A stretch of 64,000 nt of DNA. It comes from an uncultured Pseudomonadota bacterium. Lineage in GTDB: Bacteria > Myxococcota_A > UBA796 > SXON01. Below the pieces are notes generated by a model that was not told the origin of the DNA, did no database searches, and saw only the letters and a program-made list of their open reading frames with translations. The DNA lies in the NCBI GenBank assembly GCA_903885375.1, contig CAISIK010000061.1, positions 1,224-65,223 on the forward strand, given 5' to 3'. A program made the translations under genes and the position numbers. Each line of letters opens with the position of its first letter. Within the stretch, counting starts at the first letter, position 1. Positions 6,006 through 60,715 of this stretch are shown in pieces.

Positions 6006-6076
6006 GGGCGTTTCATACCACAAGCGCGAGGACGTGGGCCCCGAACCTTGTTCGGGAAGCGTTCCGGGGCTACCCT

Positions 6077-38293: not shown

Positions 38294-38294
38294 G

Positions 38295-40040: not shown

Positions 40041-40093
40041 AAGCTGATTCGAGCACTCGGCAGCCGGCATGGTTCTTGCTATTCTTGACGCCG

Positions 40094-41029
40094 ATGCGTT
40101 TCCCTCCTGAACTCACTCGCCTCCGAGCCCTCATGGCCCTGGGCGTTTCCCTCGTGGTGGGCCTCGCCGCCGGCACGGGGGCGAACGTATTCGCGGGCAC
40201 CCGGCTCACCCTCCCGGATGATGTCACGCTGCCCGAGTACACCGATGCTCCCGTGGCCGAGGCCGGGGAGGGGAGCGTGGCTGCCCCGGTGGAAGAGAGC
40301 GGGAGCGCGGAAGAATCCGCCCCGCTCGTGGCCGATCGTCGCCTCTACAACGATGCGATCGTGCGGCGGAACATCTTCGATTCGGCCGCCACTCCCTCCG
40401 AAACGGTGGCCAACGCCGGCTCGCAGGACTGCAAGGAGAGCGGCTCGCGGCTGCTCGCCACGGTCGTGGCCGACCTCCCCGAGTACTCGAGCGCGCTCAT
40501 CGGCGGCAGCGGCAAGTCCGGCCGCGCCCTCGGCTACAAGGTGGGCGACTCGGTGGGTTCCGAGGGCCGCATCGTGGCCATCGAGCAGAAGAAGGTCTGT
40601 CTCGACGCAGGCGGCTGCATCTGCATGGGCGAGAATGCCAGGTTGGCGGAAGCCGGCCCCACCGCCGAAGCGGGCGCCGAGGACTCGGGCGGGGTCACCA
40701 AGCTCTCCGACACCAAGTTCCTCGTGGATCGGTCCTTCCTCGAGAAGCAGCTCGGCAACGTGGAAACGCTCGCCTCCCAGATCCGGGCCTCGCCCAAGAC
40801 CGAGGATGGCCAGATTGTCGGGTTCCGCCTCTCCGCCATCCGCAAGGGGAGCGTGTTCGACAAGCTGGGCATCAAGAACGGGGACGTCGTGCACAACGTG
40901 AACGGCCAGGCCCTCACGAGCATGGAAACGGCCATGGGGGTCTACGGCTCCCTCCAGAACGAACGCGGCTTCAACTTCGAAGTGACGCGCCGCAACCAGA
41001 AGATGACGATCGAGTACGAGGTTCGCTGA
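40094..41029 (+). CDS. gspC: Type II secretion system protein C (PDZ-containing)
   Basis: ATG 40094 (MRFPPELTRLRALMALGVSLVV TM anchor). C-terminal PDZ-like GFRLSAIRKGSVFDKLGIKNGDVVHNVNG. TGATG overlap with gspD. Confidence 0.75.
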   Translation: MRFPPELTRLRALMALGVSLVVGLAAGTGANVFAGTRLTLPDDVTLPEYTDAPVAEAGEGSVAAPVEESGSAEESAPLVADRRLYNDAIVRRNIFDSAATPSETVANAGSQDCKESGSRLLATVVADLPEYSSALIGGSGKSGRALGYKVGDSVGSEGRIVAIEQKKVCLDAGGCICMGENARLAEAGPTAEAGAEDSGGVTKLSDTKFLVDRSFLEKQLGNVETLASQIRASPKTEDGQIVGFRLSAIRKGSVFDKLGIKNGDVVHNVNGQALTSMETAMGVYGSLQNERGFNFEVTRRNQKMTIEYEVR

Positions 41030-46812: not shown

Positions 46813-47229
46813 ATGCGCAAGTCCCGCCTCGTCACCAACCGGAAGGGCATGTCCCTCGTGGAGATCATGGTCGTGATCGCCATCATCGGCGTGCTGATGA
46901 CCGTGATCGCCGTCAACGTGACCGGCTTCCTCGACGACGCCAACGTGTCCTCGACCAAGATCCAGATCAACAACCTCGAGAAGGCCCTCGTGGCCTACTC
47001 GGCGAAGCACAAGGGCAAGTACCCTTCGACCTCCGAAGGCCTCGACGCGGCCAAGAAGTACTTCCCGAACGACACCACGCCGCAGGATGCCTGGGGCAAC
47101 AACTTCCAGTACTACTCGCCCGGCACGCACGGCAAGCACGACTACGAGATCGTCTCGCTGGGCAAGGACGGCAAGGAGGGCGGCGAGGAGTCCGACGCCG
47201 ACATCTACAGCTGGGCGATGGCCGACTGA
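46813..47229 (+). CDS. gspG: Major pseudopilin
   Basis: 138 aa; AAGGAG RBS at 46802-46807. Prepilin motif KG/MSLVEIMVVIAIIGVL; GspG blocks DAWGNNFQY and SLGKDGKEGG. Confidence 0.95.
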   Translation: MRKSRLVTNRKGMSLVEIMVVIAIIGVLMTVIAVNVTGFLDDANVSSTKIQINNLEKALVAYSAKHKGKYPSTSEGLDAAKKYFPNDTTPQDAWGNNFQYYSPGTHGKHDYEIVSLGKDGKEGGEESDADIYSWAMAD

Positions 47230-47230
47230 C

Positions 47231-47935
47231 ATGAAGCGCGGGGTCACCCTCATCGAGATGATGGTGGTGATGGCGGTCATGGCCGTCGTCATCGCCGTGG
47301 GCGCGCCTGTGCTCACCTCGGTGTTCGACCTCCAGCAGCGCGGCGCGGCGAAGACCCTCGCCGATGCCTACCGGCTCCTCCAGACCGAGGCAATGCTCCG
47401 CAACGTGACCTTCCGCATCGCCTACAACCTCGATCGGTCCACGTGGAGCGTGGAGGTGGGCGATCCTTCGGCGCTCATCTTCACCGACCCGCGCAGCCGC
47501 GAGGAGTGGGAGGAGGAGCAGCAGCGGAAGTTGAAGCGTTTTACCAAGAAGGAGATCGAGTCGGGGGAGGCGAGCGACATCACCGATCAGGGCGGTCGCT
47601 TTTCCGGGCTCGAGGTTCCCGGCTTCCCCACCAAGGGCGAGCTTCCCGACAGTTGCCGCTTCGCCTACGTGTACACCCCGCAGTACGGCGATCCGGTCAC
47701 CCCTTCGGAGCAGATGCCCGAGGAAAAGGAAGACGAACGGGTGGTGTACAGCCACATCTTCCCCGACGGCACGATGGAGTTCACGGTGGTCCGCATCGTG
47801 GACGTAGAGGACCCGGCCGATGGCTACACGGTGGAGGTGGAGCCCTTTTCCGGGCAGGTGCGCCTGGAAACGGAGGAGGCCTCGATCGGCTCCAGCCTGT
47901 CGTGGATTCCGTCGGAGGCGCCGACCAGCCGATGA
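47231..47935 (+). CDS. gspH: Minor pseudopilin, GspH-like
   Basis: 234 aa; prepilin motif RG/VTLIEMMVVMAV. The name is assigned by operon position. Confidence 0.6.
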   Translation: MKRGVTLIEMMVVMAVMAVVIAVGAPVLTSVFDLQQRGAAKTLADAYRLLQTEAMLRNVTFRIAYNLDRSTWSVEVGDPSALIFTDPRSREEWEEEQQRKLKRFTKKEIESGEASDITDQGGRFSGLEVPGFPTKGELPDSCRFAYVYTPQYGDPVTPSEQMPEEKEDERVVYSHIFPDGTMEFTVVRIVDVEDPADGYTVEVEPFSGQVRLETEEASIGSSLSWIPSEAPTSR

Positions 47936-48582
47936 TCCGCCGCCACGCCTTCACCCTCATGGAGATCGTGATCTCCCTCGCGATCCTCGCCGTCTCGCTG
48001 ATGGTGCTCGTGGAGTCGCAGATCGCCAGCGTCGTCCAGACGATGGATGGGCAGCGCATCCTCACGGCCACCCAACTGGCGGAGGCCAAGCTGGCCGAGG
48101 TGCTGCTCACGCTCGAGATGGAAGGCTTCCAGGAGAGCGAGAAGGGCGAGGAGGGCACCTTCGAGGAGTTCGGCGACAACGGCGAGTACGGCGAGGTCGT
48201 GGACTTCGAGGGCGAGTACGACGACTACGGCTACGCCTGGACCGTGCGCAAAGTGGAGATGCAGCTCGGCGACATCGGCGGCACCCTCGAGGAGCTGCAG
48301 CAGTCGGGCGAGCTCGACCAGACCGGCACCGGAACGACCTCCTCGGCGGATGACGCCGGCATCGACTCCTCGATGTTCTCGAGTTTCCTGTCGCCGGACA
48401 CCATCAACGACACCCTCTCGCCCTGGATGCGGGAGGTGCGCGTGATCGTGTGGTGGGGCGACGATCCGGGGGAGCAGGAGGGGGAGTCCAGCTGCGAGAA
48501 CTGTGTCGAGATCGTGACCCACGTCTTCAACCCGAGCGGCAAGGTGTTCAACACCGAGTCCGGCGCGGCGGAGACTCCATGA
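47932..48582 (+). CDS. gspI: Minor pseudopilin, GspI-like, with acidic insert
   Basis: 216 aa; HA/FTLMEIVISLAIL; ATGA overlap. Acidic insert EGFQESEKGEEGTFEEFGDNGEYGEVVDFEGEYDDYG. Confidence 0.6.
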   Translation: MIRRHAFTLMEIVISLAILAVSLMVLVESQIASVVQTMDGQRILTATQLAEAKLAEVLLTLEMEGFQESEKGEEGTFEEFGDNGEYGEVVDFEGEYDDYGYAWTVRKVEMQLGDIGGTLEELQQSGELDQTGTGTTSSADDAGIDSSMFSSFLSPDTINDTLSPWMREVRVIVWWGDDPGEQEGESSCENCVEIVTHVFNPSGKVFNTESGAAETP

Positions 48583-49298
48583 TGCGGTCTCGCGCCGGCT
48601 TCTCGCTGCTCGAGGTGGTGGTGGCCCTCGGCATCATGGGCCTGATCGGGTTGATCACGTTCGAGACCATCGCCAGCGCGCTCGACACGCGCGATGTGCT
48701 GGAGGAGGAGGATGCCTCCAACCAGTCCGCGCGTGTGGCGCTCGATCGCCTCCGGCGCGACCTTCGGGTGGCCTACCTCACCACCAACACCAGCGCGGTG
48801 AACACCTACAAGACGCAGTTCATCGGCAAGAACGACGGTCCCGATTCATTGTGGTTCACCACCCTGTCGCACCACCGCCTGTTCCGCGAATCGCGCGAAT
48901 GCGACCAGACCGAGGTCACCTATTGGACCGAGGACGACCCCACGATGAAGGGCGCCAAGGTGCTCTTGAGGCGCGAGGCGCCGCGTATCGACAACGAGCC
49001 CGAGAAAGGCGGGCTCATCGCGCCGTTGGCCTACAACCTGAAGGCCGTGGAATACCGCTACATCAACCCGAAGACCAACGAGTGGTTGGAGGAGTGGGAC
49101 AGCACCGGGGTGGACCTCGCGAACAAGCTGCCGCGTGCCGTGCAGATCGCCCTGGTGTTCCTCGTGGCCGATCCGGACGATCCCGAAAAGCTCGTGGAGC
49201 GTCCGTACGCCACCACCGTGATGCTGTACTACGGCGACAAGCTCACCACCAAGGTGAGCAGCAGCGACAGCACGAGCAGCACCGAGGACAACAACTGA
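48579..49298 (+). CDS. gspJ: Minor pseudopilin, GspJ-like
   Basis: 239 aa; AG/FSLLEVVVALGI; ATGA overlap; GspJ-like RVALDRLRRDLR block. Confidence 0.65.
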   Translation: MMRSRAGFSLLEVVVALGIMGLIGLITFETIASALDTRDVLEEEDASNQSARVALDRLRRDLRVAYLTTNTSAVNTYKTQFIGKNDGPDSLWFTTLSHHRLFRESRECDQTEVTYWTEDDPTMKGAKVLLRREAPRIDNEPEKGGLIAPLAYNLKAVEYRYINPKTNEWLEEWDSTGVDLANKLPRAVQIALVFLVADPDDPEKLVERPYATTVMLYYGDKLTTKVSSSDSTSSTEDNN

Positions 49299-50521
49299 TG
49301 CCCTCGTTGCGCCAGCTGCGTCGCCAGCGTGCCCGGCGCTCCCGCGGTGGGATCGCGCTGCTCGTGGTGATCGCCGCGGTGATGTTCCTGACCGTGCTCG
49401 TCACCGACATCGACTTCGGCTCCCGCGTTCGTTTCGTGGCGGCCGCGCACAGCCGCGATGGCTCGCAGGCCTACTGGGTGGCCAACTCGGGCATGAGCCT
49501 CTACCGGCTCGTCCTGATGGGGAACAAGCAGCTCGGAAAATACCTCACCGGCTCGGGCAAGGACTTCTGCGAGGTGGTGGCGATGCAGGGCATCAGCTGC
49601 AGCGACCCGCTCCTCAGCTTCATCCCCTTCCTCAACACGGGCATGCTGCGGAGCATGCTCGTGAGCGGCGGCGACCTCGAAGAGGAAGACATCGAGGAGC
49701 TGAAGGCCACCGGCCAGGCCACCGAGGCCACCACCGACGAGTCCCGCGAGAAGTCGGCGTCCCGCTTCGGAAAGCAGGGGTTCCTCGACTTCAACGGTGA
49801 CTTCACCGCTACCGTGCAGGGCGAGGACTGCAAGGTGAACATTTCGGGCCTCGCCACGCACAGCGAGCCCCTGAGCGAGGACCCGCTCTACGAGATGCTC
49901 GAGCAGCTGATGTCGGGCGAGGAGAACGAAGCCTGGCTCCGCGAACGGAACCTCACGGCGCTCGAGCTCATCGGCAACCTCGCCGACTGGGTGGACTCCG
50001 ACTCCAACGTGGCCAGCGGCAACGGCAGCTACGAAGACAACCTCTACAGCGGCCTCGCCAGCCCGTACATGACCAAGAACGCCCCGTTCGACAGCACCGA
50101 GGAAATCCGGCTCGTGGAGGGGTGGCAGGACTCCGTGTACGAGCGCTGGGGCGACAAGCTCACGATCTACGGGTCGAAGAAGGTGAACATCACCTGCGCG
50201 GACAAGGAAGTCCTCAAGATGATGCTCCGGGCCTACGGGGGGCTCACCACGGACTCGCAAGTCGATGCGGCGCTCACCGCGCTCGAACAGTACAAGCTGC
50301 AGGGCAACGTGATCGCCACCTGTGATCAATTCTCCAAGGCCCTCACCGAGGAGCAGGGGATCACGATGTCGAGTGATTTTGCCGAGAAGTGCACCAATCG
50401 CAACACGGTGTACCGGGTCACCTCCACGGGGGTGGTGTCCAATGTGAACGTGAAGATCACCGCGGTGATCGATCAATCGAGTTCCGACGCGGGTCGCGTG
50501 AAATACTGGCTGGTGGAGTAA
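49298..50521 (+). CDS. gspK: Minor pseudopilin GspK-like
   Basis: 407 aa; hydrophobic N-terminus GIALLVVIAAVMFL without Glu+5. GspK-like SYEDNLY..PYMTKNAPFDSTEEIRLVEGW block. TGATG overlap. Confidence 0.7.
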   Translation: MPSLRQLRRQRARRSRGGIALLVVIAAVMFLTVLVTDIDFGSRVRFVAAAHSRDGSQAYWVANSGMSLYRLVLMGNKQLGKYLTGSGKDFCEVVAMQGISCSDPLLSFIPFLNTGMLRSMLVSGGDLEEEDIEELKATGQATEATTDESREKSASRFGKQGFLDFNGDFTATVQGEDCKVNISGLATHSEPLSEDPLYEMLEQLMSGEENEAWLRERNLTALELIGNLADWVDSDSNVASGNGSYEDNLYSGLASPYMTKNAPFDSTEEIRLVEGWQDSVYERWGDKLTIYGSKKVNITCADKEVLKMMLRAYGGLTTDSQVDAALTALEQYKLQGNVIATCDQFSKALTEEQGITMSSDFAEKCTNRNTVYRVTSTGVVSNVNVKITAVIDQSSSDAGRVKYWLVE

Positions 50522-50523
50522 GC

Positions 50524-52131
50524 ATGGCGCAGGTTCAAGGCATTGATCTCGGAGCGTGGCGCGTTCGCGTCGCCACGATGGACGGCAGTTTCCGCCGTCG
50601 CATCCTCCGCGACGTGGTGGAGATGGATGCCTCGGTGGGCACCGGCAAGGCCATCGAGGCCATCGCAGCCGGCGAGCCCGGCTGGTCCACCGCGGAGCGC
50701 GCTGCGGCCTTCCCGCTGGAGCAGGGTGCCGTGCGCACGGTGCGCATGCCCTTCACCGACCGCGCCACGATCGCCCGGGCGCTCCCCGCGGAGATCGAGA
50801 GCAACGTCCCCTACGAGCTCGACGAGATGGTGCTCGCGTCGCGGGTCATCCTCCAGGACAAGGCGGGTTCGCTCACCCGGGCCGTCATCGCACCGAAGGT
50901 GGAGCTCCGCGATCGGCTCGCCCTCCTCGTCGCGGCAGGGTCGGAGCCGAAGCTGGTGGTGCTGGATGCCGAAGCGCTGGCTTCGTACTCGGACCGTGGG
51001 GTGCAGGCGGTGATCGACTTCGGTCACGAGCGCATCCTGATGGCGCTGTGTCGGGGGGGCGAGCTGCTCGCGGGGCGCCTGATCCCAATGGGCGGCGCGG
51101 CGTTGACGCAGGCTATCGCGGAAGCGCTGAACGTCCCGGTCGCGGATGCGGAAGCCATCAAGCACGAGGCAGCCGTGCCGGCCGATCGCGACGACGGATG
51201 GCGGGGATCGGAGCCCACCGACGGGCAGGGCACGCGGGTGGACGCCCAACGGGTGCTGGCCGCCCTGATTCCCGTGCTCGACGACCAGATCGCCGAGCTC
51301 CGGGCGCGCCTCGTGGCCTTCGAGGATGAGTTCGAGGTGGGCATCGACGAGGTCCTGCTGGCCGGCGGCGGCAGCCAGCTCGCGGGTGTGGCCGACCGCA
51401 TCGCCACCTTCGTGGGGGTGCCCTGCCGCTCGGTCATCGTGCCGGGTGGCCACCCGCCCGCGTGTGCGCTGGCCGTGGCGCTCGCACGCGTGGCGGCCGG
51501 CGAAGTGCCGGCTACCGACCTCCGGATCGGCGAGTTCACCTTCCGCGGTCACGCGGAAATCCTCTGGAACGTGGTGAGCTACGGCGGCCTCGCCACCGCG
51601 GGAGCCCTGCTCGTGGGAACCCTGGTGCTCGGCGTGCGTGTGATGCAGGCATGGGACGAAATGAGCGCGCTCGACACGCGCATCGTCGACTCCGTGAACC
51701 GCAGCGTGCCCGGCGTCGACCCGTCGCGGCTCTCCGACTCGGGCATGGCGCTCGCCATCGTGCAGGAACGCGCGGATGCGATGGAGGAGCGCGTGAACAC
51801 GTTGGGGAGCATCGTCGGGGGCGAGCCGCCCACGCTGGGCATGCTCAAGCGCCTCTCCGACTCGCTGCCCGCCAACCAGGTGGCCCGGGTCGACGTTCGC
51901 GAGCTCACCCTCACCGCCGAGGCGCTCAGCTTCAAGGCCGAGACCGACAGCTACGAGTCCGTGGCCAAGATCGAAGAAACGCTGAAGGCCACGACCACCT
52001 TCGCCCAGGCGGTGAAGGGGGAGGAGAAAAAATCTGGCGAAATGCTGGTGTTCAACATGAGCATTCCGCTCGGTGAGCCGGAAGCCAAGGCCGAAGAAGG
52101 CGTCGAAGCAGACGCCGGCAAGGAGGGTTGA
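50524..52131 (+). CDS. gspL: GspL-like assembly protein (actin-like/PilM-type N-domain, TM, periplasmic domain)
   Basis: 535 aa; GIDLGAWRVRVA and AVIDFGHERI actin-fold motifs; TM VVSYGGLATAGALLVGTLVLGV. Confidence 0.7.
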   Translation: MAQVQGIDLGAWRVRVATMDGSFRRRILRDVVEMDASVGTGKAIEAIAAGEPGWSTAERAAAFPLEQGAVRTVRMPFTDRATIARALPAEIESNVPYELDEMVLASRVILQDKAGSLTRAVIAPKVELRDRLALLVAAGSEPKLVVLDAEALASYSDRGVQAVIDFGHERILMALCRGGELLAGRLIPMGGAALTQAIAEALNVPVADAEAIKHEAAVPADRDDGWRGSEPTDGQGTRVDAQRVLAALIPVLDDQIAELRARLVAFEDEFEVGIDEVLLAGGGSQLAGVADRIATFVGVPCRSVIVPGGHPPACALAVALARVAAGEVPATDLRIGEFTFRGHAEILWNVVSYGGLATAGALLVGTLVLGVRVMQAWDEMSALDTRIVDSVNRSVPGVDPSRLSDSGMALAIVQERADAMEERVNTLGSIVGGEPPTLGMLKRLSDSLPANQVARVDVRELTLTAEALSFKAETDSYESVAKIEETLKATTTFAQAVKGEEKKSGEMLVFNMSIPLGEPEAKAEEGVEADAGKEG

Positions 52132-52724
52132 TGTCCGCGCTCCTCGAACCCGCACGCGCCCGTTTCAACGGGTACGTCTCCGACATGAGCCCGCGCGATC
52201 GCGCGCTCTTCCTCGGCCTCACCCTCAGCCTCTACGGCGGGCTCCTCCTCGGCGCCCTCTGGCTCGGCAGCTCCATCCTCGGCGACCTGCGCTCCCGTAG
52301 CTCGGCGCGGGATGCCGTGGCCACCCGGCTCGAAGCGATGGAGTCGGAGCTGAAAGCCAATTCGGCGAAGGCGGCCGAGATCGAAACCGTCCTGCGCGAG
52401 AACGCCAACCAGGACCTGCCGAGTTTTGTGGAGAAGGCCGCCCTGAAGCTGAGCCTCGGGAGCAACCTCAAGGCCGTGAAGGCCAAGGGCACGACCTCGA
52501 TCGGCAACATCGAGGAGAAGTCCTTCAACATCGAGCTCGACAAGATCTCGCTCGGGCAGCTCACCGAGCTCCTGTTCGAGATGGAGACCACCGGCTACCC
52601 CCTGCGCATCCGCACCACGCGCCTGAAGACCGTTGGCCCTCCGGGCCAGCGCCTCCTCTCGGGCACCCTGGAAGTCAGCCGTTTCAAGCTCGATGAGTCG
52701 GGCACCACCACCGAGGGGAACTAG
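52131..52724 (+). CDS. gspM: GspM-like protein
   Basis: 197 aa from ATG 52131 (TGATG overlap). Single TM LFLGLTLSLYGGLLLGALWL followed by a periplasmic domain. The name is assigned by position and size. Confidence 0.6.
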   Translation: MSALLEPARARFNGYVSDMSPRDRALFLGLTLSLYGGLLLGALWLGSSILGDLRSRSSARDAVATRLEAMESELKANSAKAAEIETVLRENANQDLPSFVEKAALKLSLGSNLKAVKAKGTTSIGNIEEKSFNIELDKISLGQLTELLFEMETTGYPLRIRTTRLKTVGPPGQRLLSGTLEVSRFKLDESGTTTEGN

Positions 52725-54047
52725 ATGATCCGCTGGGCGCTTCTGTTGGCCGGCTGTGCGGGTGCTTCGCTCCTCGGCCTCGCGTTTGGCTTCTACGCCA
52801 CCTTCCCCTCCGAAGAGGCGGCGACCTACGCCGAATACGAGTTCCACCACCGCAATCGCGACTACGCGATGGAGGTCGGCGACGTCTCGCCGTGGTGGAT
52901 TCCGGGTGTTCGCGCCACCGACGTCACGATCTACACGGTGAAGCGCGGTCGGCGCACGAAGGACGTGCCCAAGCCCGGCCTCGAGCGTACGCCGATGCTC
53001 AAGCTCGATTCGCTCGGGGTTCGCGCCCAGGTGCTCCCGCTCCTGATGGGCAGGGAGAGCTACGGGTTCAGCGCGGCGCTGATCGGTGGCACCGTGGCAG
53101 GCCACTTCGCGCAGGGGGATGCCGGCATCGACCTCTCCTTCGCCGCGTCGGGTCTCGACCTCACGCAGATGCCGATCGAGAAGGACAACGTGATCGTCCA
53201 CCTCGGCGGCACCCTTTCCGGAAAGAGCGACCTTTCGCTCGACGCCGAGGACGTGCAGAACTCCACCGGCTCGCTCTCCTTCTCCTTCGATGGCCTGAAG
53301 CTCGACGAGGGCACGAAGGTCATGGGCATCGCGCTCCCGGTCGTCACCTTCGCCACGGCGGCCGTAAAACTCGACGCCACGGAGGGCAAGCTCGTGGTGA
53401 GCGAGGGCACGTTCGACGGCGATGTGCTCGACATGACGCTGGTGGGCGACATCGCGTTGAACAAGAAGCTCGCGCGGAGCCGCAACCGCCTGGAGCTGAT
53501 GGTCACGCTTCCCGAAGACCTCGACCGCCTCGCGAAGATCGCGCCGCTGATGAAACGGGCGCGTGATTCCGAAGGCACCTACCACTTCAACATCGGCGGA
53601 ACGATCCTGAGCCCGACGTTCCGCGCCGGGAAAGCGGCGGCCGGCGGCCTCGCCAGCAGCGACGAGCCGGGCGGATCGCGCATCGGTGGGCTCGGGCCGG
53701 CGATGGGGGAGGATGAGGCGGGCGACGCCAATCCGGATGACGCGCGCGAGGAGCGGCGGAAGCGTCGCGAGGAGCGCATCAAGGAGCGCCGCGAGCGCCT
53801 GCGGAAGCGCCGCGAGGAGGCCGCGGCGAACGGGGGAGGGGGTGCCATCGGCGATGAGCACGACGAGGAGCCGGTGGGCGAGGACATGGAGGAGCCTCGG
53901 ATCGGTCGCCGTCCCCGCGCCAACATGGGCGAAGAGGACGTGGAACAGGGCGACTTCGACATGGGCCGCGGGCCCCCGCAGATGGACATGCCCGACATCG
54001 GCCCTCCCGGCAACGAAGGGCCTGCGGAGGACTTCGAGGAGCAGTAG
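52725..54047 (+). CDS. gspN: GspN-like protein with long charged C-terminal tail
   Basis: 440 aa; the start abuts the gspM stop. N-terminal TM, a GspN-like body (~300 aa), then the tail EERRKRREERIKERRERLRKRREE... and an acidic end. Confidence 0.6.
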   Translation: MIRWALLLAGCAGASLLGLAFGFYATFPSEEAATYAEYEFHHRNRDYAMEVGDVSPWWIPGVRATDVTIYTVKRGRRTKDVPKPGLERTPMLKLDSLGVRAQVLPLLMGRESYGFSAALIGGTVAGHFAQGDAGIDLSFAASGLDLTQMPIEKDNVIVHLGGTLSGKSDLSLDAEDVQNSTGSLSFSFDGLKLDEGTKVMGIALPVVTFATAAVKLDATEGKLVVSEGTFDGDVLDMTLVGDIALNKKLARSRNRLELMVTLPEDLDRLAKIAPLMKRARDSEGTYHFNIGGTILSPTFRAGKAAAGGLASSDEPGGSRIGGLGPAMGEDEAGDANPDDAREERRKRREERIKERRERLRKRREEAAANGGGGAIGDEHDEEPVGEDMEEPRIGRRPRANMGEEDVEQGDFDMGRGPPQMDMPDIGPPGNEGPAEDFEEQ

Positions 54048-54131
54048 CGGCACGGAACGCCGCATGGCAAGATCCTGCGGCCAGACGCGGCGCCGGTCGA
54101 CCGGTTAGCCCTGCCGAGCCGTGGGAGTCCG

Positions 54132-55898
54132 ATGTTGCTGATCCTCGCCAGCTCCGCCCTTGCGGGCGTCCTCGTCAACGAGGTCTACTACGACCCCGAT
54201 CCCGAGGGTGACGACGGCAACGAGTGGATCGAGCTGTGCAACAACGGCGTCGAAACGGTCGACCTCAGCGGGTGGTGGATCGAGGCGGGCGGGTCCTCGT
54301 TCGACAGCTGCTTCGACATCGCCTCGGCCTCCATCGATGCCGGCGGCTACGTCCTGATCGGTGGCGCCAGCGGCCCGGTGCCCGGCAGCTTCTCGCCGAA
54401 CCTGCAGAATGGGGGGAGCGAGTCGGATGGCGTGCGCCTCGTGAACGCCGAAGGCGTGGTCGTGGACACCGTGCTCTACGACGAGGACAACACCAGCCTC
54501 CTCCCCGACGATCTGGGCGGCACCTCGAGCGCGCCTGCGCCCGACGTTTCGGGCGGCCACTCGATCGGCCGCTGGAACGGCAGCTCCGACTGTGTCGACA
54601 CCGATGTGTCCGGCGCCGACTTCATCGACTACGAAGTGCCGTCGGCCGGCGTGGCCAACCCCGCCCCCGCCACCGATCCGGGCGGCGATGCCGACTGCAC
54701 CGGGGCTCCCTCGGTGCGCGTGAACGAGTTCCTCTCCAACCCCGAGGGCAGCGACGACGACCTCGAGTGGGTGGAGCTCTACAACGGCGGCACCGAGTCC
54801 TTCGACCTCTCTGGTTGGGTGGTGCGCGGCGCCACGAAGTCCACCGGTGGGTCCTCCAACGTGATCCCCGAGGGCTCCCTGCTGGAAGCGGGCGCGTTCC
54901 TCGTCGTGGGCAACGGCGGCATCGGCACCATCTCCCTGGGCAACGGCACCGGCGGCGATGGGGTGTACCTCGAATGCAACGGCGCGGTGGTCGACACCAT
55001 CATCTACGGCACGAGCAACAGCGACGCGCTCCCCGATGAGTCCGGCGCGGTGGCCACGCTGCTGGGCGCCGTGCCCTCGGAAGGCGTGTCGCTCTCCCGC
55101 CGGGTGGACGGTGGGGACTCCGACGACCCCACGGCCGATTGGACCTCGTCGTCCGTGAACACCCCCGGCGCCGCCAACCAGACGCCCCAGTGCAACCCCG
55201 CGGGCGCCGAGGGCCTCAAGGTCAACGAGGTGATGTACGACCCCTCGAGTGATGACTCCACCAACGAGTTCGTGGAGTTGGTCAACACCGGCTCCGTGGC
55301 GATCCAGCTCGAAGGTTTCGTGCTGGAAGCGGCCAAGAGCTCCTGGGGCATCAACGCTACGCTTCCGGCCGGCGCGGTCATCGAGCCGGGCGAGTTCTTC
55401 GTGGTCGGCGGCGGCACCGTCACCAACGAGGACTACACCGCCTCCAAGCTGGACCTTGGCAATGGCACCGACGGGGATGGCGTGCGCATCCTCGATTGCA
55501 CCGGCGTGGTGCTCGACAGCATGCTCTACGGCGGCGCCACCGGCGATGGGCTCGAAGGAGACAACGGGTCGACCGACGTGGCCGACAAGGTGAGCGCCGG
55601 AACTTCGCTGGGTCGGTACCCCGACGGCGCCGACAGCGATGCCCACACCGACTGGTTCCCGTACTCCACCCCCACGCCGGGCGCCGCCAACGCCGATCCC
55701 GGCGCGGAGGACACCGGTTCGGGCTCCGACACCGGCAACGGCGGGGACACCGGTTCCGGGGGAGACACGGGCGTGTGCGGGCCCAGCGCCGAGCGTCCCG
55801 ATGGGGCGGCGTGCGCCACCACCGGGCTTCCGTTCGGGGGCCTGGAGGTGGTGGCCGCCGCGATCGTGGCGGTGCGTCGTCGTCGCCGCGCCGGTTGA
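54132..55898 (+). CDS. Secreted protein with three lamin-tail domains and a MYXO-CTERM-like C-terminal tag
   Basis: 588 aa; GGGAG RBS; short signal peptide. Three LTD repeats (VLVNEVYYDPDPEGDDGNEWIELCNNG; VRVNEFLSNPEGSDDDLEWVELYNGG; LKVNEVMYDPSSDDSTNEFVELVNTG). C-terminus as described in the next feature. Confidence 0.8.
   Translation: MLLILASSALAGVLVNEVYYDPDPEGDDGNEWIELCNNGVETVDLSGWWIEAGGSSFDSCFDIASASIDAGGYVLIGGASGPVPGSFSPNLQNGGSESDGVRLVNAEGVVVDTVLYDEDNTSLLPDDLGGTSSAPAPDVSGGHSIGRWNGSSDCVDTDVSGADFIDYEVPSAGVANPAPATDPGGDADCTGAPSVRVNEFLSNPEGSDDDLEWVELYNGGTESFDLSGWVVRGATKSTGGSSNVIPEGSLLEAGAFLVVGNGGIGTISLGNGTGGDGVYLECNGAVVDTIIYGTSNSDALPDESGAVATLLGAVPSEGVSLSRRVDGGDSDDPTADWTSSSVNTPGAANQTPQCNPAGAEGLKVNEVMYDPSSDDSTNEFVELVNTGSVAIQLEGFVLEAAKSSWGINATLPAGAVIEPGEFFVVGGGTVTNEDYTASKLDLGNGTDGDGVRILDCTGVVLDSMLYGGATGDGLEGDNGSTDVADKVSAGTSLGRYPDGADSDAHTDWFPYSTPTPGAANADPGAEDTGSGSDTGNGGDTGSGGDTGVCGPSAERPDGAACATTGLPFGGLEVVAAAIVAVRRRRRAG
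55770..55895 (+). other. C-terminal sorting-tag-like region (Cys / small residues / hydrophobic helix / Arg cluster)
   Basis: GVCGPSAERPDGAACATTGLPFGGLEVVAAAIVAVRRRRRAG, the last 42 codons of the LTD protein. Confidence 0.6.
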
Positions 55899-55955: not shown

Positions 55956-56912
55956 ATGTGCTCGCTCCTCCTGCTCCTCCTCGCCGCCTGCCCCAACACA
56001 CCCGAAGAAAGTGGCCAGCCCACCGATACCGACACCGGCGGCGGCATCGTGGATGGCGACCCGACCACCATCCCGCTCAACGGCGTCTGCCCCCTCGATA
56101 CGCGCTGGGGCGGGTTCAAGGTCGAGGCAAACGTCGACTACTCGGCGATCGACGGGTACATCTCCAACGGTGTCGTGCCGGGAAACGTGATGGAGGAGGC
56201 GGGGAAGGAAGGGGACTGCCGCCTGATGAAGCGCGAGAACCCCTACTGCAACCCCGTTTGCGAGGCGGGCGAGACCTGCGACTTCGACGGCACCTGTCTC
56301 CCGTACCCGGAGAACCAGGACCTCGGCACGGTCACCATCGAGGGGCTCCGCAACGCGGTATCGATGGAGCCCTCGGAGTCCGGGAAGAAATACTTCTACA
56401 CCCAGCTCGATCCCCTCGCGTTCGATGCCGGGGTGCTCATCCAGTTGAAGACGGAGGGCGAGGCGTACGCACCGCTCACGCTCAACGGCGTGGGTGTGGT
56501 GCCGCTCGTGCCCACCTCGACGGAGTGGACCATCGCCGAAGGACAGGACCTCGCCGTCGCCTGGGATGCCCCCACGGACGCCGTGCGCAGCGAAATCTTC
56601 CTCACCCTGAACGTGGACCAGCACGGGCTCACCCCGCTCAACCTCGAGTGTGTCTTCGAGGATGATGGCGCCGCCACCGTGCCGGCCTCGGTCATCGATG
56701 CCCTCCTTAGCGCCGGCGTCACGGGCTACCCCACGGGCAAGGTGCAGCGCCGCACGGCTGACAAGGTCGCGCTCGGCGCGGGCTGCGCCGACTTCATCGT
56801 GGACTACTCCTGGGCCACCACGATCACGGTGTCGGGGCATACGCCCTGCAAGTCGGATCGGGACTGTCCCGACGGTGAAACCTGCGACATTCCCAACGAG
56901 ACCTGTGAGTGA
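55956..56912 (+). CDS. Cys-rich hypothetical lipoprotein
   Basis: ATG 55956 (MCSLLLLLLAAC lipobox; alternative GTG 55947). D/T/G linker, then Cys-rich patches YCNPVCEAGETCDFDGTCLPYP and PCKSDRDCPDGETCDIPNETCE. Confidence 0.6.
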   Translation: MCSLLLLLLAACPNTPEESGQPTDTDTGGGIVDGDPTTIPLNGVCPLDTRWGGFKVEANVDYSAIDGYISNGVVPGNVMEEAGKEGDCRLMKRENPYCNPVCEAGETCDFDGTCLPYPENQDLGTVTIEGLRNAVSMEPSESGKKYFYTQLDPLAFDAGVLIQLKTEGEAYAPLTLNGVGVVPLVPTSTEWTIAEGQDLAVAWDAPTDAVRSEIFLTLNVDQHGLTPLNLECVFEDDGAATVPASVIDALLSAGVTGYPTGKVQRRTADKVALGAGCADFIVDYSWATTITVSGHTPCKSDRDCPDGETCDIPNETCE

Positions 56913-58417
56913 TGCGCGGGCTCCTGCTGGTCCTCGTGGGCTGCCCCTCGGGCACGCTGGAGGTGGGCGAGACGGGTGAGCGCGGCCGGGACTCGGGCGG
57001 CGTGGACTCCGGCACCGACACCGCCGATACGGGGGTTGACCCGTCCCTCTGCGACTCCCTCACGCCGCTTCCGCTGGACCGCCCTCGCTCCCTCGGTACC
57101 TTCACCAACGGGGAGGACTTCACGTTCAACGAGGATGGCCAGCACGTGAGCGTGGATGCCCAGGGCAACCTCGTGGGAATCACGATCGATGGCACGCAGC
57201 AGCTCCTGTACCCGGGCCTCGGCACCACGGCCGGCATCCACATGCTTCCGGACGGCTCCGTGGTCTACGCCGACGTGCTGAACAACACCGTGGTGAACGT
57301 CGACTATCGAACGGGCGACTTCCGGATCATCGCTGCGGGCCTCTCCTACCCCAACGGTCTCGACGTGGGTCGGGACGGGATGGTGTACGTGGCCGAGACG
57401 GGGCGGGGTGGGCTCAGGCGCATCGACCCGGCCACCGGCGAGTCGGAGGTGATCGCGCTCGGGCTCGAGGCCCCCAACGGCGTGAGCTTCGGCCCAACCT
57501 GGGATGACCTCTACGTGGGCAGCTTCGGCGGCGGGGCGGTGTACCGCCTGCAGCGCGAAGCAAATGATACATGGTCCCGCCCGGAGGTCTTCGCGCTCAC
57601 TCCCGAGGCCTTGGCGCCGGTGAACGCGTGCGCCGAGGCGGCGCTGGGCACACGTTGCGCGGCCTCCTACTACGGCCTGGAGGGCGAATGTGTGTCATCA
57701 GAGCTTGGCTACAACGTCTGTGAAATCGTGTATGACACACCAGCATGTGTCGGGCTCGCCGTGGGTGATTCATGCGTCACTGAACTTGGGCAGCAGAGCA
57801 TCGAGTCGATCTGTGTGGAGACCAGCGCGGTGGAGGGCGCGTTCTGCGCCTCGGCGCCGGCCGAGCTCGTCGAGCCGTGCGCGGGGAACGAGCAGGGCTC
57901 GCCATGCCGCCTCGACGATGGAACCCTCGCCACCTGCACCCCCACCTTTGAAGGGGTCAACATCTGCTACCCGCAGGCCACCGACTACTCGGAGTACACC
58001 GAGCCCTGCGTGGACCAGGCGCTGGGCGCCGAATGTACCGTGGAAAGCTGGACGTATCCGGTGCATGGCGTTTGCCAGGATGGGTCGACATTCGGCATCC
58101 CGGGCAATTTCTGCTGGACTGCACCCTCGCTCGGCGGTGAGTTCGGAATGCTCGACGGCCTGAACGTGGACGTGTGCGGAAACGTGTACGCCACGGCCTA
58201 CATCGCGGGGCACGTGTACCGGTGGTCGGCCGCCGGCACCGAGCCCGAGCTCGTGGTCGACGTGCGCAGCTCCTGGATTCCGAACCTCCACTGGGGCAAC
58301 GGCGTGGGCGGCTGGGAGAAGAACGTGCTGTACATGGCCGATCGGCAGAGGGGAGGGGTCTTCCCCCTCGACGTGGGCGTCGAAGGGCACGGCGAAGCCT
58401 ACGAGGTGGCGCCGTGA
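56912..58417 (+). CDS. Lipoprotein, SMP-30/gluconolactonase/LRE-like beta-propeller with inserted Cys-rich repeats
   Basis: ATG 56912 (TGATG overlap; lipobox LVLVGC). Propeller-blade motifs SYPNGLDVGRDGMVYVAE, EAPNGVSFGP, LYVGSFGGGAVYRL, GNVYATAYIAGHVYRW. A 16-Cys insert lies at 57629-58114. Confidence 0.7.
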   Translation: MRGLLLVLVGCPSGTLEVGETGERGRDSGGVDSGTDTADTGVDPSLCDSLTPLPLDRPRSLGTFTNGEDFTFNEDGQHVSVDAQGNLVGITIDGTQQLLYPGLGTTAGIHMLPDGSVVYADVLNNTVVNVDYRTGDFRIIAAGLSYPNGLDVGRDGMVYVAETGRGGLRRIDPATGESEVIALGLEAPNGVSFGPTWDDLYVGSFGGGAVYRLQREANDTWSRPEVFALTPEALAPVNACAEAALGTRCAASYYGLEGECVSSELGYNVCEIVYDTPACVGLAVGDSCVTELGQQSIESICVETSAVEGAFCASAPAELVEPCAGNEQGSPCRLDDGTLATCTPTFEGVNICYPQATDYSEYTEPCVDQALGAECTVESWTYPVHGVCQDGSTFGIPGNFCWTAPSLGGEFGMLDGLNVDVCGNVYATAYIAGHVYRWSAAGTEPELVVDVRSSWIPNLHWGNGVGGWEKNVLYMADRQRGGVFPLDVGVEGHGEAYEVAP

Positions 58418-59037
58418 GCGGAGCCTCGCTCGCCTCGATGCTCTTGGCTCCGGGCGCCAGCCTTTCCGACGTTGCCGCCCTCCTCGATGGCCTCGACCAC
58501 GCGGGACGCCGGGCCGCCGTGGAGGCCTGCGGGTTGGCCGAGCTGGGGCGCCTGTACGAGCTGGCCGCGGCGTCCGACCCCATCACCGCCGCCCACTTCG
58601 TCGGCGCGGGGGCGCCCCTGCACCCCACCGTGCACGATGGCTGGAACTCGTTGCCGCTCCCCGCGTTCGGGCGGCGGTTCCAGAAGGTGTTCTGCCGGCC
58701 CGAGCCGGGCGGGCCGGACCGCATCTTCGGCTACAACGAGGGCGGGGCCCGTTGGCTCATCGGCCCGGGCTACTTCCAGCTCGTGCCTACCGCCGGCAAC
58801 GCCGAGTTCGAAGCGCGCGGGGCCTGGGTGGTGGACTACTTCAAGGTGCCCGACGGGCCCGTGCCGGCGTCCTGGCCGTGGGTGGTGCCCAACTGGGTCG
58901 GCCCGCAGGTGCTCGTTTACAACGGCACCCGCGACTTCATGCGCAAGGTGAGCGAGCACGTGAGCGTGGGCAAGCCGTGGTCGCGGCTCGGCGAGCTGCC
59001 CTTCTGCTTCGTGCTGGTCCGGCGGCCGGAGGCGTAG
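58414..59037 (+). CDS. Hypothetical protein
   Basis: GTG 58414 forms a GTGA overlap with the upstream stop (alternative ATG 58438). About 207 aa, genome-like codon usage, no family confidently recognised. Confidence 0.45.
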   Translation: MSGASLASMLLAPGASLSDVAALLDGLDHAGRRAAVEACGLAELGRLYELAAASDPITAAHFVGAGAPLHPTVHDGWNSLPLPAFGRRFQKVFCRPEPGGPDRIFGYNEGGARWLIGPGYFQLVPTAGNAEFEARGAWVVDYFKVPDGPVPASWPWVVPNWVGPQVLVYNGTRDFMRKVSEHVSVGKPWSRLGELPFCFVLVRRPEA

Positions 59038-59854: not shown

Positions 59855-60715
59855 ATGGCCGTTCGCGACACGCTGGTGGTGGTGGTGCTCCTCGGTTGCG
59901 ACGCCGAGGAGTCGCTGCCCGCAACGGGTTCGGTCCGCATGCTGAGCTACAATGTTCATGGCTTGCCATCTGGGATTACTGGCGATGATACACCGGCGCG
60001 TATCGCGCAGATCGCCCCCCTGCTCCCGGACTACGACCTCCTCGGCCTTCAGGAAGTCTGGATCGCCGAGGATCAGGCGGTGCTCACCGCCCAGTGCGAG
60101 CATCCTACGCAGGAGTACTTCGATGAACGACTCGATGCCGACCGGGCCTACGGCGCGGGGCTGAACCTGCTCGGGCCCGCGCCCACCCGGCTCGTGCACG
60201 AACAGCACTACACCCAGTGTTACGGCCTGCTCGACGGCGCGAGCGACTGTTTTGCCAGCAAGGGCTTCCAGCTCGTGCGCTTCGAGCTCGGCGCCGGTTC
60301 GGTCGACGTGTACAACAGCCACTTCGAAGCCGGAAGCGGCGAGGAGGATGCGGCGGCGCGCGCCAGCAACGTGGCGGAGCTGCTCGACGCGATGGCCGAG
60401 CTCTCGGGGGGGCGCGCCATCCTCTTCATGGGCGACACCAACCTCGATGGGGACGATCCGGCCGACGAGCCCATCCTCGACGCCCTCTTCGCCGCGGGGC
60501 TCGAGGATGCCTGCGACATCGTGGGCTGCCCCGAGCCCGGGCGCATCGACCGCTTCCTCCTTCGTGATGGCAACGACGTGCGCCTCCGGCCACACGACTG
60601 GAGCGTGGCCGACGGCTTCGTGGATGCGGGAGGCGTGCCGCTTTCGGACCACGATCCCATCGAGCTCTCGATCGATTGGGAGGTCCTGGTGCCCCCTGAC
60701 CAGCTTCCGCGATAG
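59855..60715 (+). CDS. Endonuclease/exonuclease/phosphatase (EEP)-family lipoprotein
   Basis: 286 aa; lipobox VLLGC. EEP motifs MLSYNVHGL, LLGLQEV, FMGDTNL, LSDHDP. Confidence 0.8.
   Translation: MAVRDTLVVVVLLGCDAEESLPATGSVRMLSYNVHGLPSGITGDDTPARIAQIAPLLPDYDLLGLQEVWIAEDQAVLTAQCEHPTQEYFDERLDADRAYGAGLNLLGPAPTRLVHEQHYTQCYGLLDGASDCFASKGFQLVRFELGAGSVDVYNSHFEAGSGEEDAAARASNVAELLDAMAELSGGRAILFMGDTNLDGDDPADEPILDALFAAGLEDACDIVGCPEPGRIDRFLLRDGNDVRLRPHDWSVADGFVDAGGVPLSDHDPIELSIDWEVLVPPDQLPR

Follow-up and report, generated by a model that had tools for sequence, protein, structure and literature searches.

[quoted passage not shown] PulA is cited in the work that presents the MYXO-CTERM pathway model and the T2SS dependence of MYXO-CTERM proteins (PMC11980579). 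This form of sorting, in which a Cys is lipidated, a CPBP myxosortase cleaves the protein, and the T2SS transports it, has been solved only recently, in Myxococcus xanthus. According to the published description by the author of the sequence model, canonical MYXO-CTERM tails have no charged or Pro residues between the Cys and the Arg cluster. GlyGly-CTERM proteins in general are also handled by the T2SS. For one protein with a lamin-tail domain (LTD), the extracellular nuclease ExeM, a candidate rhombosortase has been identified (PMC6085458).

Here, we analyze a gene for a protein with three LTDs (the 3xLTD protein), which follows a T2SS operon in a 64-kb stretch of DNA. By the window, we mean that whole stretch. 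The reading that we favor, with a confidence moderately above even, is that of an envelope protein with a variant of the MYXO-CTERM tail, which would be sorted to the surface by a myxosortase and the upstream T2SS. The features of the locus are collected in Table 1.

Table 1. Features of the T2SS-LTD locus, with positions in the window and the evidence for each assignment.
Feature	Positions	Strand	Description and evidence
gspC	40076..41029	+	delta/Myxococcota type with PDZ domain; NF041515 GspC_delta E 1.5e-55, 189 bits (cutoff 150)
gspD	41029..43857	+	secretin, 942 aa; Pfam Secretin E 6e-47, Secretin_N three stretches, GspD N0
gspE	43861-45570	+	ATPase; Pfam T2SSE E 1.4e-141
gspF	45570-46802	+	platform protein; Pfam T2SSF E 2.9e-57
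gspG, H-like, I-like, J, K	46813..50521	+	pseudopilins; Pfam T2SSG, N_methyl, T2SSJ, T2SSK_1st; XpsH/GspH
gspL and gspM	50524..52724	+	gspL PilM/FtsA-like, 535 aa; gspM 197 aa; Pfam FtsA, PilM_2; operon position
gspN	52725..54047	+	440 aa; TIGR04411 E 6.3e-43, 147 bits (cutoff 50), residues 8-299
gspN-LTD intergenic gap	54048..54131	+	84 nt; no promoter- or terminator-like site
3xLTD protein gene	54132..55898	+	588 aa plus stop; ATG start
Leader	54132..54167	+	aa 1-12, MLLILASSALAG; hydrophobic, no basic residue, ends ALA|G
LTD 1	54168..54662	+	aa 13-177; Pfam LTD, repeat alignment, beta-sandwich pLDDT ~90
LTD 2	54714..55178	+	aa 195-349; Pfam LTD, repeat alignment, AF2
LTD 3	55215..55691	+	aa 362-520; best Pfam stretch 358-466, repeat alignment, AF2
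Asp/Thr/Gly-rich disordered linker	55692..55769	+	aa 521-546; sequence
Tripartite tail	55770..55895	+	aa 547-588; GVC549GP..RPDG..C561ATTGLP567FG570GLE572, VVAAAIVAV, RRRRRAG
p318	55956..56912	+	Cys-rich putative lipoprotein (MCSLLLLLLAAC...); no Pfam family; weak Myxo_Cys_RPT match
SGL-type beta-propeller	56909..58417	+	putative lipoprotein (LVLVGC...); Pfam SGL E 2.3e-14; Cys-rich insert
p207	58414..59037	+	conserved, leaderless; last of co-oriented run; convergent gene next

Coding evidence and the upstream secretion operon

An earlier note on this DNA had described an open reading frame of 588 aa on the plus strand, 84 nt past gspN, and the coordinates, the ATG, and the codon-position GC all agree with that description. 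The GC content by codon position over 54132-55898 (0.66/0.53/0.90) matches that of real genes in this window of ~70% GC, and a Shine-Dalgarno-like GGGAG is found 4 nt before the ATG. The identical protein is present on 22 contigs examined, GCA_947472305.1 among them. A longer leader by use of an upstream start was considered and rejected: the 28 codons that separate the ATG from the stop of gspN contain no ATG, GTG or TTG in frame. That stop shares the frame of the LTD gene in the window and in loci L009, L003, L017, and L019, and is out of frame in L010, L013, L021, and L035; we treat the shared frame as a coincidence and not as a sign of a read-through fusion.

The T2SS operon that had been placed directly upstream on the same strand is indeed there, as a complete delta-type set, with the core components C to N in a single co-oriented cluster. 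The Pfam matches of GspC to T2SSC and PDZ are below the cutoff (25.8 and 24.1 bits, cutoff 27). The boundaries of the pseudopilin genes are those of the called genes of a contig with an exact match, and gspM is assigned by operon position together with a faint T2SSM match in an orthologue. GspN has a highly charged C-terminal extension of ~140 aa, which is kept in orthologues. As for the host, the clues are indirect: the match of GspC to GspC_delta at 189 bits, the labels of the homologue MAGs, which read Myxococcales, Myxococcota or Deltaproteobacteria bacterium, and canonical MYXO-CTERM tails on related contigs.

Three lamin-tail domains behind a minimal leader

The 3xLTD protein consists of three lamin-tail, Ig-like beta-sandwich domains. 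Pfam LTD (PF00932) matches it in three stretches with an E-value of 5.8e-49 and 165.5 bits, well above the cutoff of 34.3. The repeats had been described as having a length of ~130 aa; they are LTDs as proposed, but they measure 155-165 aa each, with 38-44% pairwise identity and z-scores of 18-34 relative to shuffles. The opening and closing motifs quoted for the repeats are found as well, except that repeat 1 ends in DF...PSAGVAN. The AF2 model of the whole protein (mean pLDDT 82) has three confident beta-sandwiches, which Foldseek matches to the Ig-folds of lamin A/C and lamins B1/B2 with probability 1.0 and TM-scores (target) of 0.5-0.66. A sequence search of the PDB, using the protein and the family profile as queries, found no match.

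At a net charge of about -76, with 89 acidic versus 13 basic residues in its mature form, the protein is extremely acidic. Six Cys in the body of the LTDs (C36, C154, C189, C282, C354, and C456) are either invariant or conserved to at least 90%. These conserved Cys, together with the extreme acidity, favor an extracytoplasmic character for the protein. Most likely, the acidic LTD array acts as a binding or adhesion module on the surface, and that binding could possibly be cation-dependent. By analogy with LTD nucleases, we also considered DNA binding, which is disfavored as a direct electrostatic contact by the balance of 89 acidic to 13 basic residues; a contact with DNA bridged by cations is conceivable.

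The leader MLLILASSALAG is an atypical putative signal peptide with no basic n-region, yet it is conserved across the LTD family. Family leaders have at most 14 aa in 64 of 106 cases, and 60 of those 64 have no Lys or Arg. In the AF2 model, the leader has a helix at residues 4-10 with low pLDDT. The small LTD paralogue of the sister genomes has no leader at all. Given a 12-aa leader without a basic residue and a leaderless paralogue, Sec export is putative. If these minimal or absent leaders are real, they pose the question of how LTD proteins pass the inner membrane.

The C-terminal tail as a probable family-specific variant

After the third LTD, the DTGSG-rich linker (aa 521-546) and the 42-aa terminus quoted in the earlier note are found identically in the sequence. 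AF2 assigns pLDDT <50 to residues 530 to 570, and a helix to residues 571-586 of the tail. At the extreme C-terminus, the layout is C561-ATTGLPFGGLEVVAAAIVAV-RRRRRAG followed by the stop, that is, the tripartite arrangement of MYXO-CTERM tags. All of the 120 homologues have a C-terminus with Cys, a hydrophobic segment, and RRRR. In an alignment of 39 members, C549 and P556 do not vary, and C561 is kept in at least 90%. The two tail Cys of the 3xLTD protein are 12 residues apart (11-17 in most members), and they do not form GCGC.

The MYXO-CTERM architecture that the note had seen in this terminus thus stands as to its three parts and its conserved Cys, but not as to the sequence models. TIGR03901.2 aligns to residues 558-586 with only 8.4 bits (cutoff 20) and an E-value of 2.8, and TIGR03382 (cutoff 15.85 bits) gives no match to the tail. 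Moreover, P567 and E572, both invariant, fall between C561 and the Arg cluster, where canonical tails have neither Pro nor charge.

Membership is rescued indirectly. Two members of the LTD family, P0109 (23.5 bits) and P0111 (22.4 bits), pass TIGR03901.2, aligned on the Cys proximal to the transmembrane segment. As a control, the experimentally validated tag of TraA scores only 20.6 bits with the same model. Across the family, 23 of 65 tails match TIGR03901, and 51 of 65 match the tail region of the myxosortase-dependent phytase model. The related tails in all 120 homologues, the distant homologues that pass, and the score of TraA partly support that the tail is a derived, family-specific variant of MYXO-CTERM. 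The lineage itself appears to use the MYXO-CTERM system, since other proteins encoded on related contigs end in canonical MYXO-CTERM tails. No CPBP (PF02517) gene was found among the ~50 ORFs of the 64-kb window submitted to Pfam, nor when 588 kb of related loci were scanned for a CPBP motif, and a myxosortase for this genome is therefore assumed.

Alternatively, the tail could be a separate sorting signal that is served by another enzyme, whether rhombosortase-like, sortase-like, or a dedicated CPBP paralogue. We consider this unlikely. It would account for the failure of TIGR03901 and TIGR03382 on the 3xLTD tail, and for the motif that the family tails share, GCG-x8-15-C-x2-4-LPxGG(L/M)E-hydrophobic-RRRR. 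The positions P567, G570, and E572 are invariant among the 56 tails that bear this motif, and six tagged proteins of related contigs that do not belong to the family lack LPxGG(L/M)E. In addition, dedicated pairs of CPBP protease and target are known, such as JDVT-CTERM/MrtJ with one enzyme and one target. On the other hand, there is a continuous transition within the family to members whose canonical GCGC tails pass the MYXO-CTERM model, and 84 of 121 tails keep the canonical spacing of 19-20 aa between the last Cys and the Arg cluster. Neither do we find any candidate processing-enzyme gene conserved beside the LTD gene across about 30 loci.

The likeness to other anchors cuts both ways, as a weak resemblance to LPXTG/NPXTG, GlyGly-CTERM, and GVDTG_CTERM speaks for a separate signal, but all of it lies far below the cutoffs. 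GVDTG_CTERM (NF058571), considered because some linkers contain GVD(T) strings, scores 14.5 bits versus a cutoff of 29 and matches 3 of 65 tails. GlyGly-CTERM (TIGR03501) does not match the 3xLTD tail and reaches 2 of the 65 family tails with E-values of about 0.1; the window ORFs scanned have no Pfam match to the rhomboid family. Reading 'LPFGG' as an LPXTG/NPXTG signal gives 13.7 bits with Rumino_NPXTG (cutoff 23.5), and LPXTG_anchor matches 6 of 65 family tails, with a best E-value of 0.0065. None of these models was retained. As to non-LTD carriers of the motif, a search with a profile of 56 tail sequences against a database of 5.8 billion proteins returned one partial protein, P0121, with an E-value of 2.8e-5, and it is uninformative because the profile is too short for a database of that size.

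Gene order around the LTD gene

The conservation of the LTD gene downstream of gspN is partial. In 7 of 10 species-level orthologues (52-71% identity), the T2SS is followed by the LTD gene, with a gap of 15-115 nt, and in 3 of those 7 a second small tagged LTD gene stands between the two. The adjacency is missing in 3 of the 10 orthologues and in all 8 four-LTD relatives. The synteny is, then, restricted to a clade, and in a more distant T2SS, whose GspN is 31% identical, gspN is not followed by an LTD gene. A scan of metagenome contigs based on GspN was saturated by the low-complexity sequence EERRKRRE, and three loci were confirmed.

A scan of the plus strand in the gap between gspN and the LTD gene found no promoter-like or terminator-like site, and the gap folds no better than its shuffles (z -0.8). 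Downstream, 7 of the 10 orthologous loci have p318 after the LTD gene, and the SGL gene overlaps p318 by 4 nt. From the short gaps and the absence of a terminator-like site, we infer that the LTD gene is probably co-transcribed with gspC-N as well as with p318, the SGL beta-propeller gene, and p207.

Is the adjacency to the T2SS just the incidental gene order of one clade, with the LTD gene belonging instead with p318, SGL, and p207? These three genes accompany it in 7 of 10 cases, exactly as the T2SS does, and they are also present in three genomes that have no T2SS upstream. Besides, every MYXO-CTERM protein needs the T2SS wherever it is encoded. We find it quite unlikely nonetheless, as orthologues with protein identities of 52-71% keep the order, the gaps stay short at 15-115 nt, there is no terminator, and a clade that does not have p318 and SGL downstream keeps the T2SS-LTD order, plus an extra tagged LTD paralogue.

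Of these neighbors, p207 has no known Pfam family. It has 482 homologues, the distant ones in unrelated contexts, and a confident AF2 model (pLDDT 94) that combines a helical domain with a beta-barrel and does not match any PDB structure significantly. As a modifying enzyme, p207 was set aside, given uninformative structural matches and distant homologues in unrelated neighborhoods.

EEP-family genes are also seen near members of the LTD family: the window has one at 59855-60715, and two immediately precede the gene for P0111.

A proposed route to the surface

Under the reading that we favor, the 3xLTD protein would pass the inner membrane, where the tail would hold it with RRRRR on the cytoplasmic side. 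The membrane-proximal Cys561 would be lipidated, and a CPBP-family myxosortase, assumed to be encoded elsewhere in the genome, would remove the hydrophobic segment. The T2SS encoded directly upstream would then deliver the protein, now lipid-anchored, to the cell surface. The steps of export, lipidation, and cleavage are carried over from the M. xanthus model, and by the same analogy the protein would depend on the T2SS. With no CPBP/myxosortase gene in the window, it is the synteny that suggests a tagged cargo linked to its own export machine.

A different possibility is that the tail is never processed, and that it is a permanent C-terminal anchor in the inner membrane with the LTDs in the periplasm, or else that the protein is an accessory component of the T2SS in this clade. 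We know of no T2SS component with LTDs, which counts against the accessory role. The fixed slot after gspN in 7 of 10 orthologues, with a second LTD gene at that place in some genomes, would suit such a protein, as would the failure of the tag models on the tail. ExeM, a tagged LTD protein, is largely membrane-associated, and its activity is independent of rhombosortase processing (PMC6085458). Yet the genes for three orthologues and for all of the four-LTD relatives do not lie near any T2SS genes, the distant T2SS with a 31% identical GspN does without an LTD gene after gspN, and a conserved Cys together with a disordered linker are hallmarks of sorting tags that are cleaved. We regard an unprocessed anchor or accessory component as very unlikely.

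One could go further and propose that LTD proteins have their own subclass of sorting signal, defined by spaced Cys, LPxGG(L/M)E, and a leader of 11-12 uncharged residues or none, which has co-evolved with the T2SS of one clade. The LTD proteins would be dedicated substrates or surface-tethered accessories, maybe with a non-canonical route to the periplasm. This proposal we hold to be unlikely.

Comparison with known sorting systems

The LTD family is widespread among uncultured freshwater Myxococcota-like genomes, and it reveals which positions of the tail are fixed (two Cys, one Pro, and the Arg cluster) as well as a Pro-Gly-Gly-x-Glu that is tolerated or required within the membrane segment. 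These tails are natural variants with which to probe how the myxosortase and the T2SS recognize their substrates, and the operon linkage offers a simple pair of cargo plus machine for study. Bacterial proteins made only of LTDs are also given a likely location, at the cell surface.

The extracellular nucleases ExeM of Shewanella and Xds of Vibrio likewise combine an LTD with a C-terminal tripartite tag (PMC6085458). ExeM has one LTD with an OB-fold and an EEP nuclease, whereas the three LTDs of the 3xLTD protein come without any catalytic domain. The tags differ too: a GlyGly motif and a rhomboid protease for ExeM and Xds, a Cys motif and a presumed CPBP protease here.

JDVT-CTERM/MrtJ (bioRxiv 10.1101/2023.06.07.544157) is another Cys-containing tripartite tag with features specific to a lineage or family. 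There, the target adjoins the gene of its CPBP protease, whereas the LTD gene has no neighboring protease in the loci examined.

With PulA and SslE, the 3xLTD protein has in common a substrate gene physically linked to the secretion operon and, presumably, a lipid anchor. PulA and SslE are lipidated at the N-terminus via a lipobox, in contrast with the presumed C-terminal anchor of the 3xLTD protein, whose T2SS linkage, unlike theirs, is seen only in one uncultured clade.

The closest likeness in C-terminal architecture is to the MYXO-CTERM proteins of M. xanthus, for example TraA, with MrtX and the T2SS (PMC11980579; bioRxiv 10.1101/2023.06.07.544157). The differences are the Cys spaced by 12 residues instead of GCGC, the LPxGG(L/M)E motif with its Pro and Glu inside the membrane segment, the uncharged 12-aa leader, the gene position at the end of the T2SS operon, and the passenger, an LTD array; the table of M. 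xanthus MYXO-CTERM proteins does not list LTD in its domain legend. What they share is the disordered linker, the Cys motif with two Cys, the hydrophobic segment, the Arg cluster, an apparently Myxococcota-like host, and a delta-type T2SS, and LTD homologues pass TIGR03901.2. The 3xLTD protein extends a known sorting pathway to a modest degree, and it does not represent a new kind of system.

The LTD gene and its secretion neighbors

The window carries a complete, co-oriented type II secretion (T2SS) cluster that closes with gspN, and directly after it an ORF for a protein with three lamin-tail domains (LTDs) and a C-terminal tail, which we call the 3xLTD protein. This arrangement, proposed in an earlier note, holds: the ORF is present on the same strand, and because the gene before it is GspN by its own model, the 84-nt gap is exact. 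The codon-position GC of the ORF (0.66/0.53/0.90) matches that of real genes in this window of ~70% GC, a GGGAG element lies 4 nt 5′ of the ATG, and none of the 28 codons between the preceding stop and the ATG offers an alternative in-frame start. Neither a promoter-like nor a terminator-like site lies in the gap, and its structure is not unusual. Co-transcription with gspN is plausible.

GspN itself runs ~140 aa past the TIGR04411 model (residues ~300-440, window 53625-54047). The extension is kept in orthologues and is extremely charged (EERRKRREERIKERRERLRKRREE, then an acidic Pro/Gly-rich end). The gspN TAG stop shares its reading frame with the LTD ORF, with 28 sense codons between (window 54045-54134); this is found in several orthologues and not in four others (L010, L013, L021, L035), and we judge it coincidental.

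Features of the window and of related loci (L numbers)
Feature	Position	Strand	Remarks
3xLTD gene	54132-55898	+	ORF, 588 aa
LTD repeats	aa 13-177, 195-349, 362-520		155-165 aa each
gspN	52725-54047		upstream of LTD gene; TIGR04411, E 6e-43
GspC			delta/Myxococcota type; NF041515, 189 bits vs cutoff 150
GspD			secretin; T2SS cluster upstream of LTD gene
GspE, GspF			same cluster
GspG, H-, I-, J-, K-type pseudopilins			same cluster
GspL (PilM-like), GspM			same cluster
p318	55956-56912		Cys-rich 318-aa protein; lipobox-like N-terminus
SGL	56909-58417		beta-propeller with Cys-rich insert; lipobox-like N-terminus
p207	58414-59037		~200-aa family
EEP-family nuclease/phosphatase	59855-60715		lipoprotein; lipobox-like N-terminus
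CotH kinase-family protein	13894-15549	-
Cyclic-nucleotide-binding proteins, adenylate/guanylate-cyclase-domain protein	37278-39839, 5469-6023	-	just upstream of gspC and elsewhere
AddAB-like helicase-nuclease pair	6281-12966	-
Single-LTD gene, sister clade	L003:9332-9979		between gspN and 3xLTD gene
Single-LTD gene, sister clade	L017 ~3570-4211; L019 ~9989-10636; L035 from ~5778		same position
LTD+CotH gene	L001:5110-9771	-	1553 aa; divergent, upstream of 3xLTD gene
EEP-family genes, two	L033:7708-9677		co-oriented, directly upstream of P0111

Three lamin-tail domains and a short leader

Pfam LTD matches the protein three times (E 5.8e-49). An AlphaFold2 prediction from 39 homologues has a mean pLDDT of 82, and Foldseek matches its domains to human lamin Ig-folds (A/C, B1 and B2; probability 1.0, TM-score 0.5-0.66). 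The repeats are thus lamin-tail domains as the earlier note had read them, but longer than its ~130 aa. They are 38-44% identical pairwise, with z-scores of 18-34 against shuffles. In the model, three beta-sandwiches are confident, residues 530-570 are disordered and residues 571-586 form a terminal helix; PDB sequence searches gave no match. The mature protein has 89 Asp+Glu vs. 13 Lys+Arg (net charge about -76), and the LTD body has six Cys (C36, C154, C189, C282, C354, C456), each invariant or with conservation of 90% or more. The acidity and the conserved Cys fit an extracytoplasmic location, and the extreme negative charge disfavors direct DNA binding by the array.

The leader is only 12 residues (MLLILASSALAG, window 54132-54167), none of them basic. 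Leaders of ≤14 aa are a family trait (64/106, 60 of those without Lys or Arg), typically 11-12 aa, and more distant members have ordinary leaders. Such a leader is unusual for a Sec signal peptide, and passage of the protein through the inner membrane is assumed.

The tail as a probable derived MYXO-CTERM

The terminus is tripartite and reads GVC549GPSAERPDGAAC561ATTGLPFGGLEVVAAAIVAVRRRRRAG, with a hydrophobic segment before the Arg cluster. As a MYXO-CTERM tag, which is how it was first read, it falls below threshold (TIGR03901.2, 8.4 bits vs. cutoff 20), and TIGR03382 does not match it; the model it fits best is that of a "myxosortase-dependent phytase", in its tail region. According to the author of the MYXO-CTERM model, canonical tags have a membrane segment without charged and proline residues and frequently GCGC. 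Here Pro567 and Glu572 lie inside the membrane segment, and the two Cys are 12 residues apart.

And yet each of the 120 homologues found (34-95% identity; three to five LTDs) ends in a related tail. Among 39 family members, C549 and P556 never vary and the conservation of C561 is 90% or more; the last Cys sits 19-20 residues before the Arg cluster in 84/121 tails. The phytase tail model matches 51 of 65 tails scanned, TIGR03901 23 and TIGR03382 12. We calibrated TIGR03901.2 with the experimentally validated TraA tag (PMC11980579), which scores just 20.6 bits. Two homologues, P0109 (23.5 bits) and P0111 (22.4 bits), score higher, with the alignment anchored at the Cys closest to the membrane segment, and are therefore bona fide MYXO-CTERM proteins within the LTD family; the window's tail is probably a derived form of the tag. 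That it is instead a separate kind of sorting signal, served by an enzyme of its own, would suit the query's low score, and is unlikely given these homologues.

About half of the family tails (58/121) share a motif, C-x8-20-C-x1-7-P-[LFM]-x-G-x-E, with Pro, Gly and Glu invariant among those that bear it. Six tagged proteins of other families on contigs of related genomes have ordinary CGC/CSC-type tails without it, so the motif would be specific to the LTD family and not to the lineage, as judged from this small sample of six.

How far the T2SS linkage extends

Identical copies of the protein are found in many assemblies, GCA_947472305.1 among them, and the gene order is gspE...N, LTD, p318, SGL, p207 in every case. 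Ten informative species-representative genomes, all freshwater-lake MAGs, have orthologues 52-71% identical: gspN lies directly upstream in four, an extra ~215-aa gene intervenes in three, and no T2SS gene is upstream in three. The gap in orthologues is 15-115 nt. None of eight four-LTD relatives (39-45% identity) adjoins a T2SS, nor does an LTD gene follow gspN in a more distant T2SS whose GspN is 31% identical. The conservation downstream of gspN is real but clade-restricted. Incidental adjacency to the T2SS is quite unlikely. Several species-representative MAG records with such high-GC, Myxococcota-like loci (L013, L017, L022, L028, L029) bear the names Klebsiella pneumoniae, Klebsiella sp., Bifidobacterium breve or Enterobacteriaceae in their titles and are evidently mislabelled.

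The extra gene encodes a protein with one LTD, whose tail is of the canonical Cys-x-Cys/TM/RRRR kind. Its GTG start lies 0-5 nt past the gspN stop. The protein is leaderless, opening directly with the first LTD strand (VAIPVVNEF), and shares 35% identity with repeats 1 and 3 of the window's protein. The tail has RRRR in L003 and L017 and a degenerate RRHLR in L019; in L035 it lies beyond the contig end.

The downstream module p318-SGL-p207 accompanies the LTD gene in 7/10 orthologues. Three window neighbors have lipobox-like N-termini (LLAAC in p318, LVGC in SGL, LLGC in the EEP-family protein). The p207 family, which Pfam does not cover, has about 480 homologues in Myxococcota-like genomes, the distant ones in unrelated neighborhoods. 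Its predicted structure, of very high confidence (pLDDT 94), combines a helical domain at the N-terminus with a lipocalin-like beta-barrel and has no significant PDB match.

P0111, with four LTDs and a canonical tag in a 9.4-Mb genome, has EEP-family genes upstream. ExeM and Xds are tagged nucleases with an LTD-EEP fusion (PMC6085458), which these recurrent EEP neighbors echo. LTD and CotH also recur together in this lineage, as in one of the three T2SS-less loci.

A proposed sorting pathway

Following the M. xanthus model (PMC11980579), the 3xLTD protein would be exported, its tail keeping it in the inner membrane, Cys561 would be lipidated, a myxosortase would cut off the hydrophobic segment, and the adjacent T2SS would carry the protein to the cell surface, where the acidic array may serve in binding or adhesion. 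We consider this pathway reasonably probable. No CPBP (PF02517) or rhomboid gene is among the window ORFs scanned, and a search for CPBP motifs across 588 kb from related loci came up empty. A myxosortase in the host genome is presumed from the published statement that mrtX orthologues and MYXO-CTERM proteins occur throughout Myxococcota (PMC11980579). The GspC_delta equivalog, homologue labels and canonical tags in related contigs point indirectly to that phylum for the host. An unprocessed anchored protein, or an accessory T2SS protein, is quite unlikely.

Comparison with known systems

LTD is missing from the domain legend that accompanies the table of M. xanthus MYXO-CTERM proteins, and no paper in the literature library searched pairs "lamin tail domain" with Myxococc*. 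The tagged family suggests a likely localization for LTD-only proteins, and its natural variation is useful for studying how tags are recognized. In PulA and SslE, too, the gene for a surface lipoprotein cargo adjoins its own T2SS, but lipidation is N-terminal. ExeM and Xds, like the 3xLTD protein, combine LTD with a C-terminal tripartite sorting tag, but of another class and enzyme, and have a catalytic domain; their T2SS route is extrapolated from GlyGly-CTERM proteins as a class. TraA and other MYXO-CTERM proteins have the same architecture and presumably use the same pathway, and differ in tail motif, leader, passenger domain and operon position. The 3xLTD protein, with its seemingly derived tag, is thus a variation on a known sorting system, and not a new type of system.
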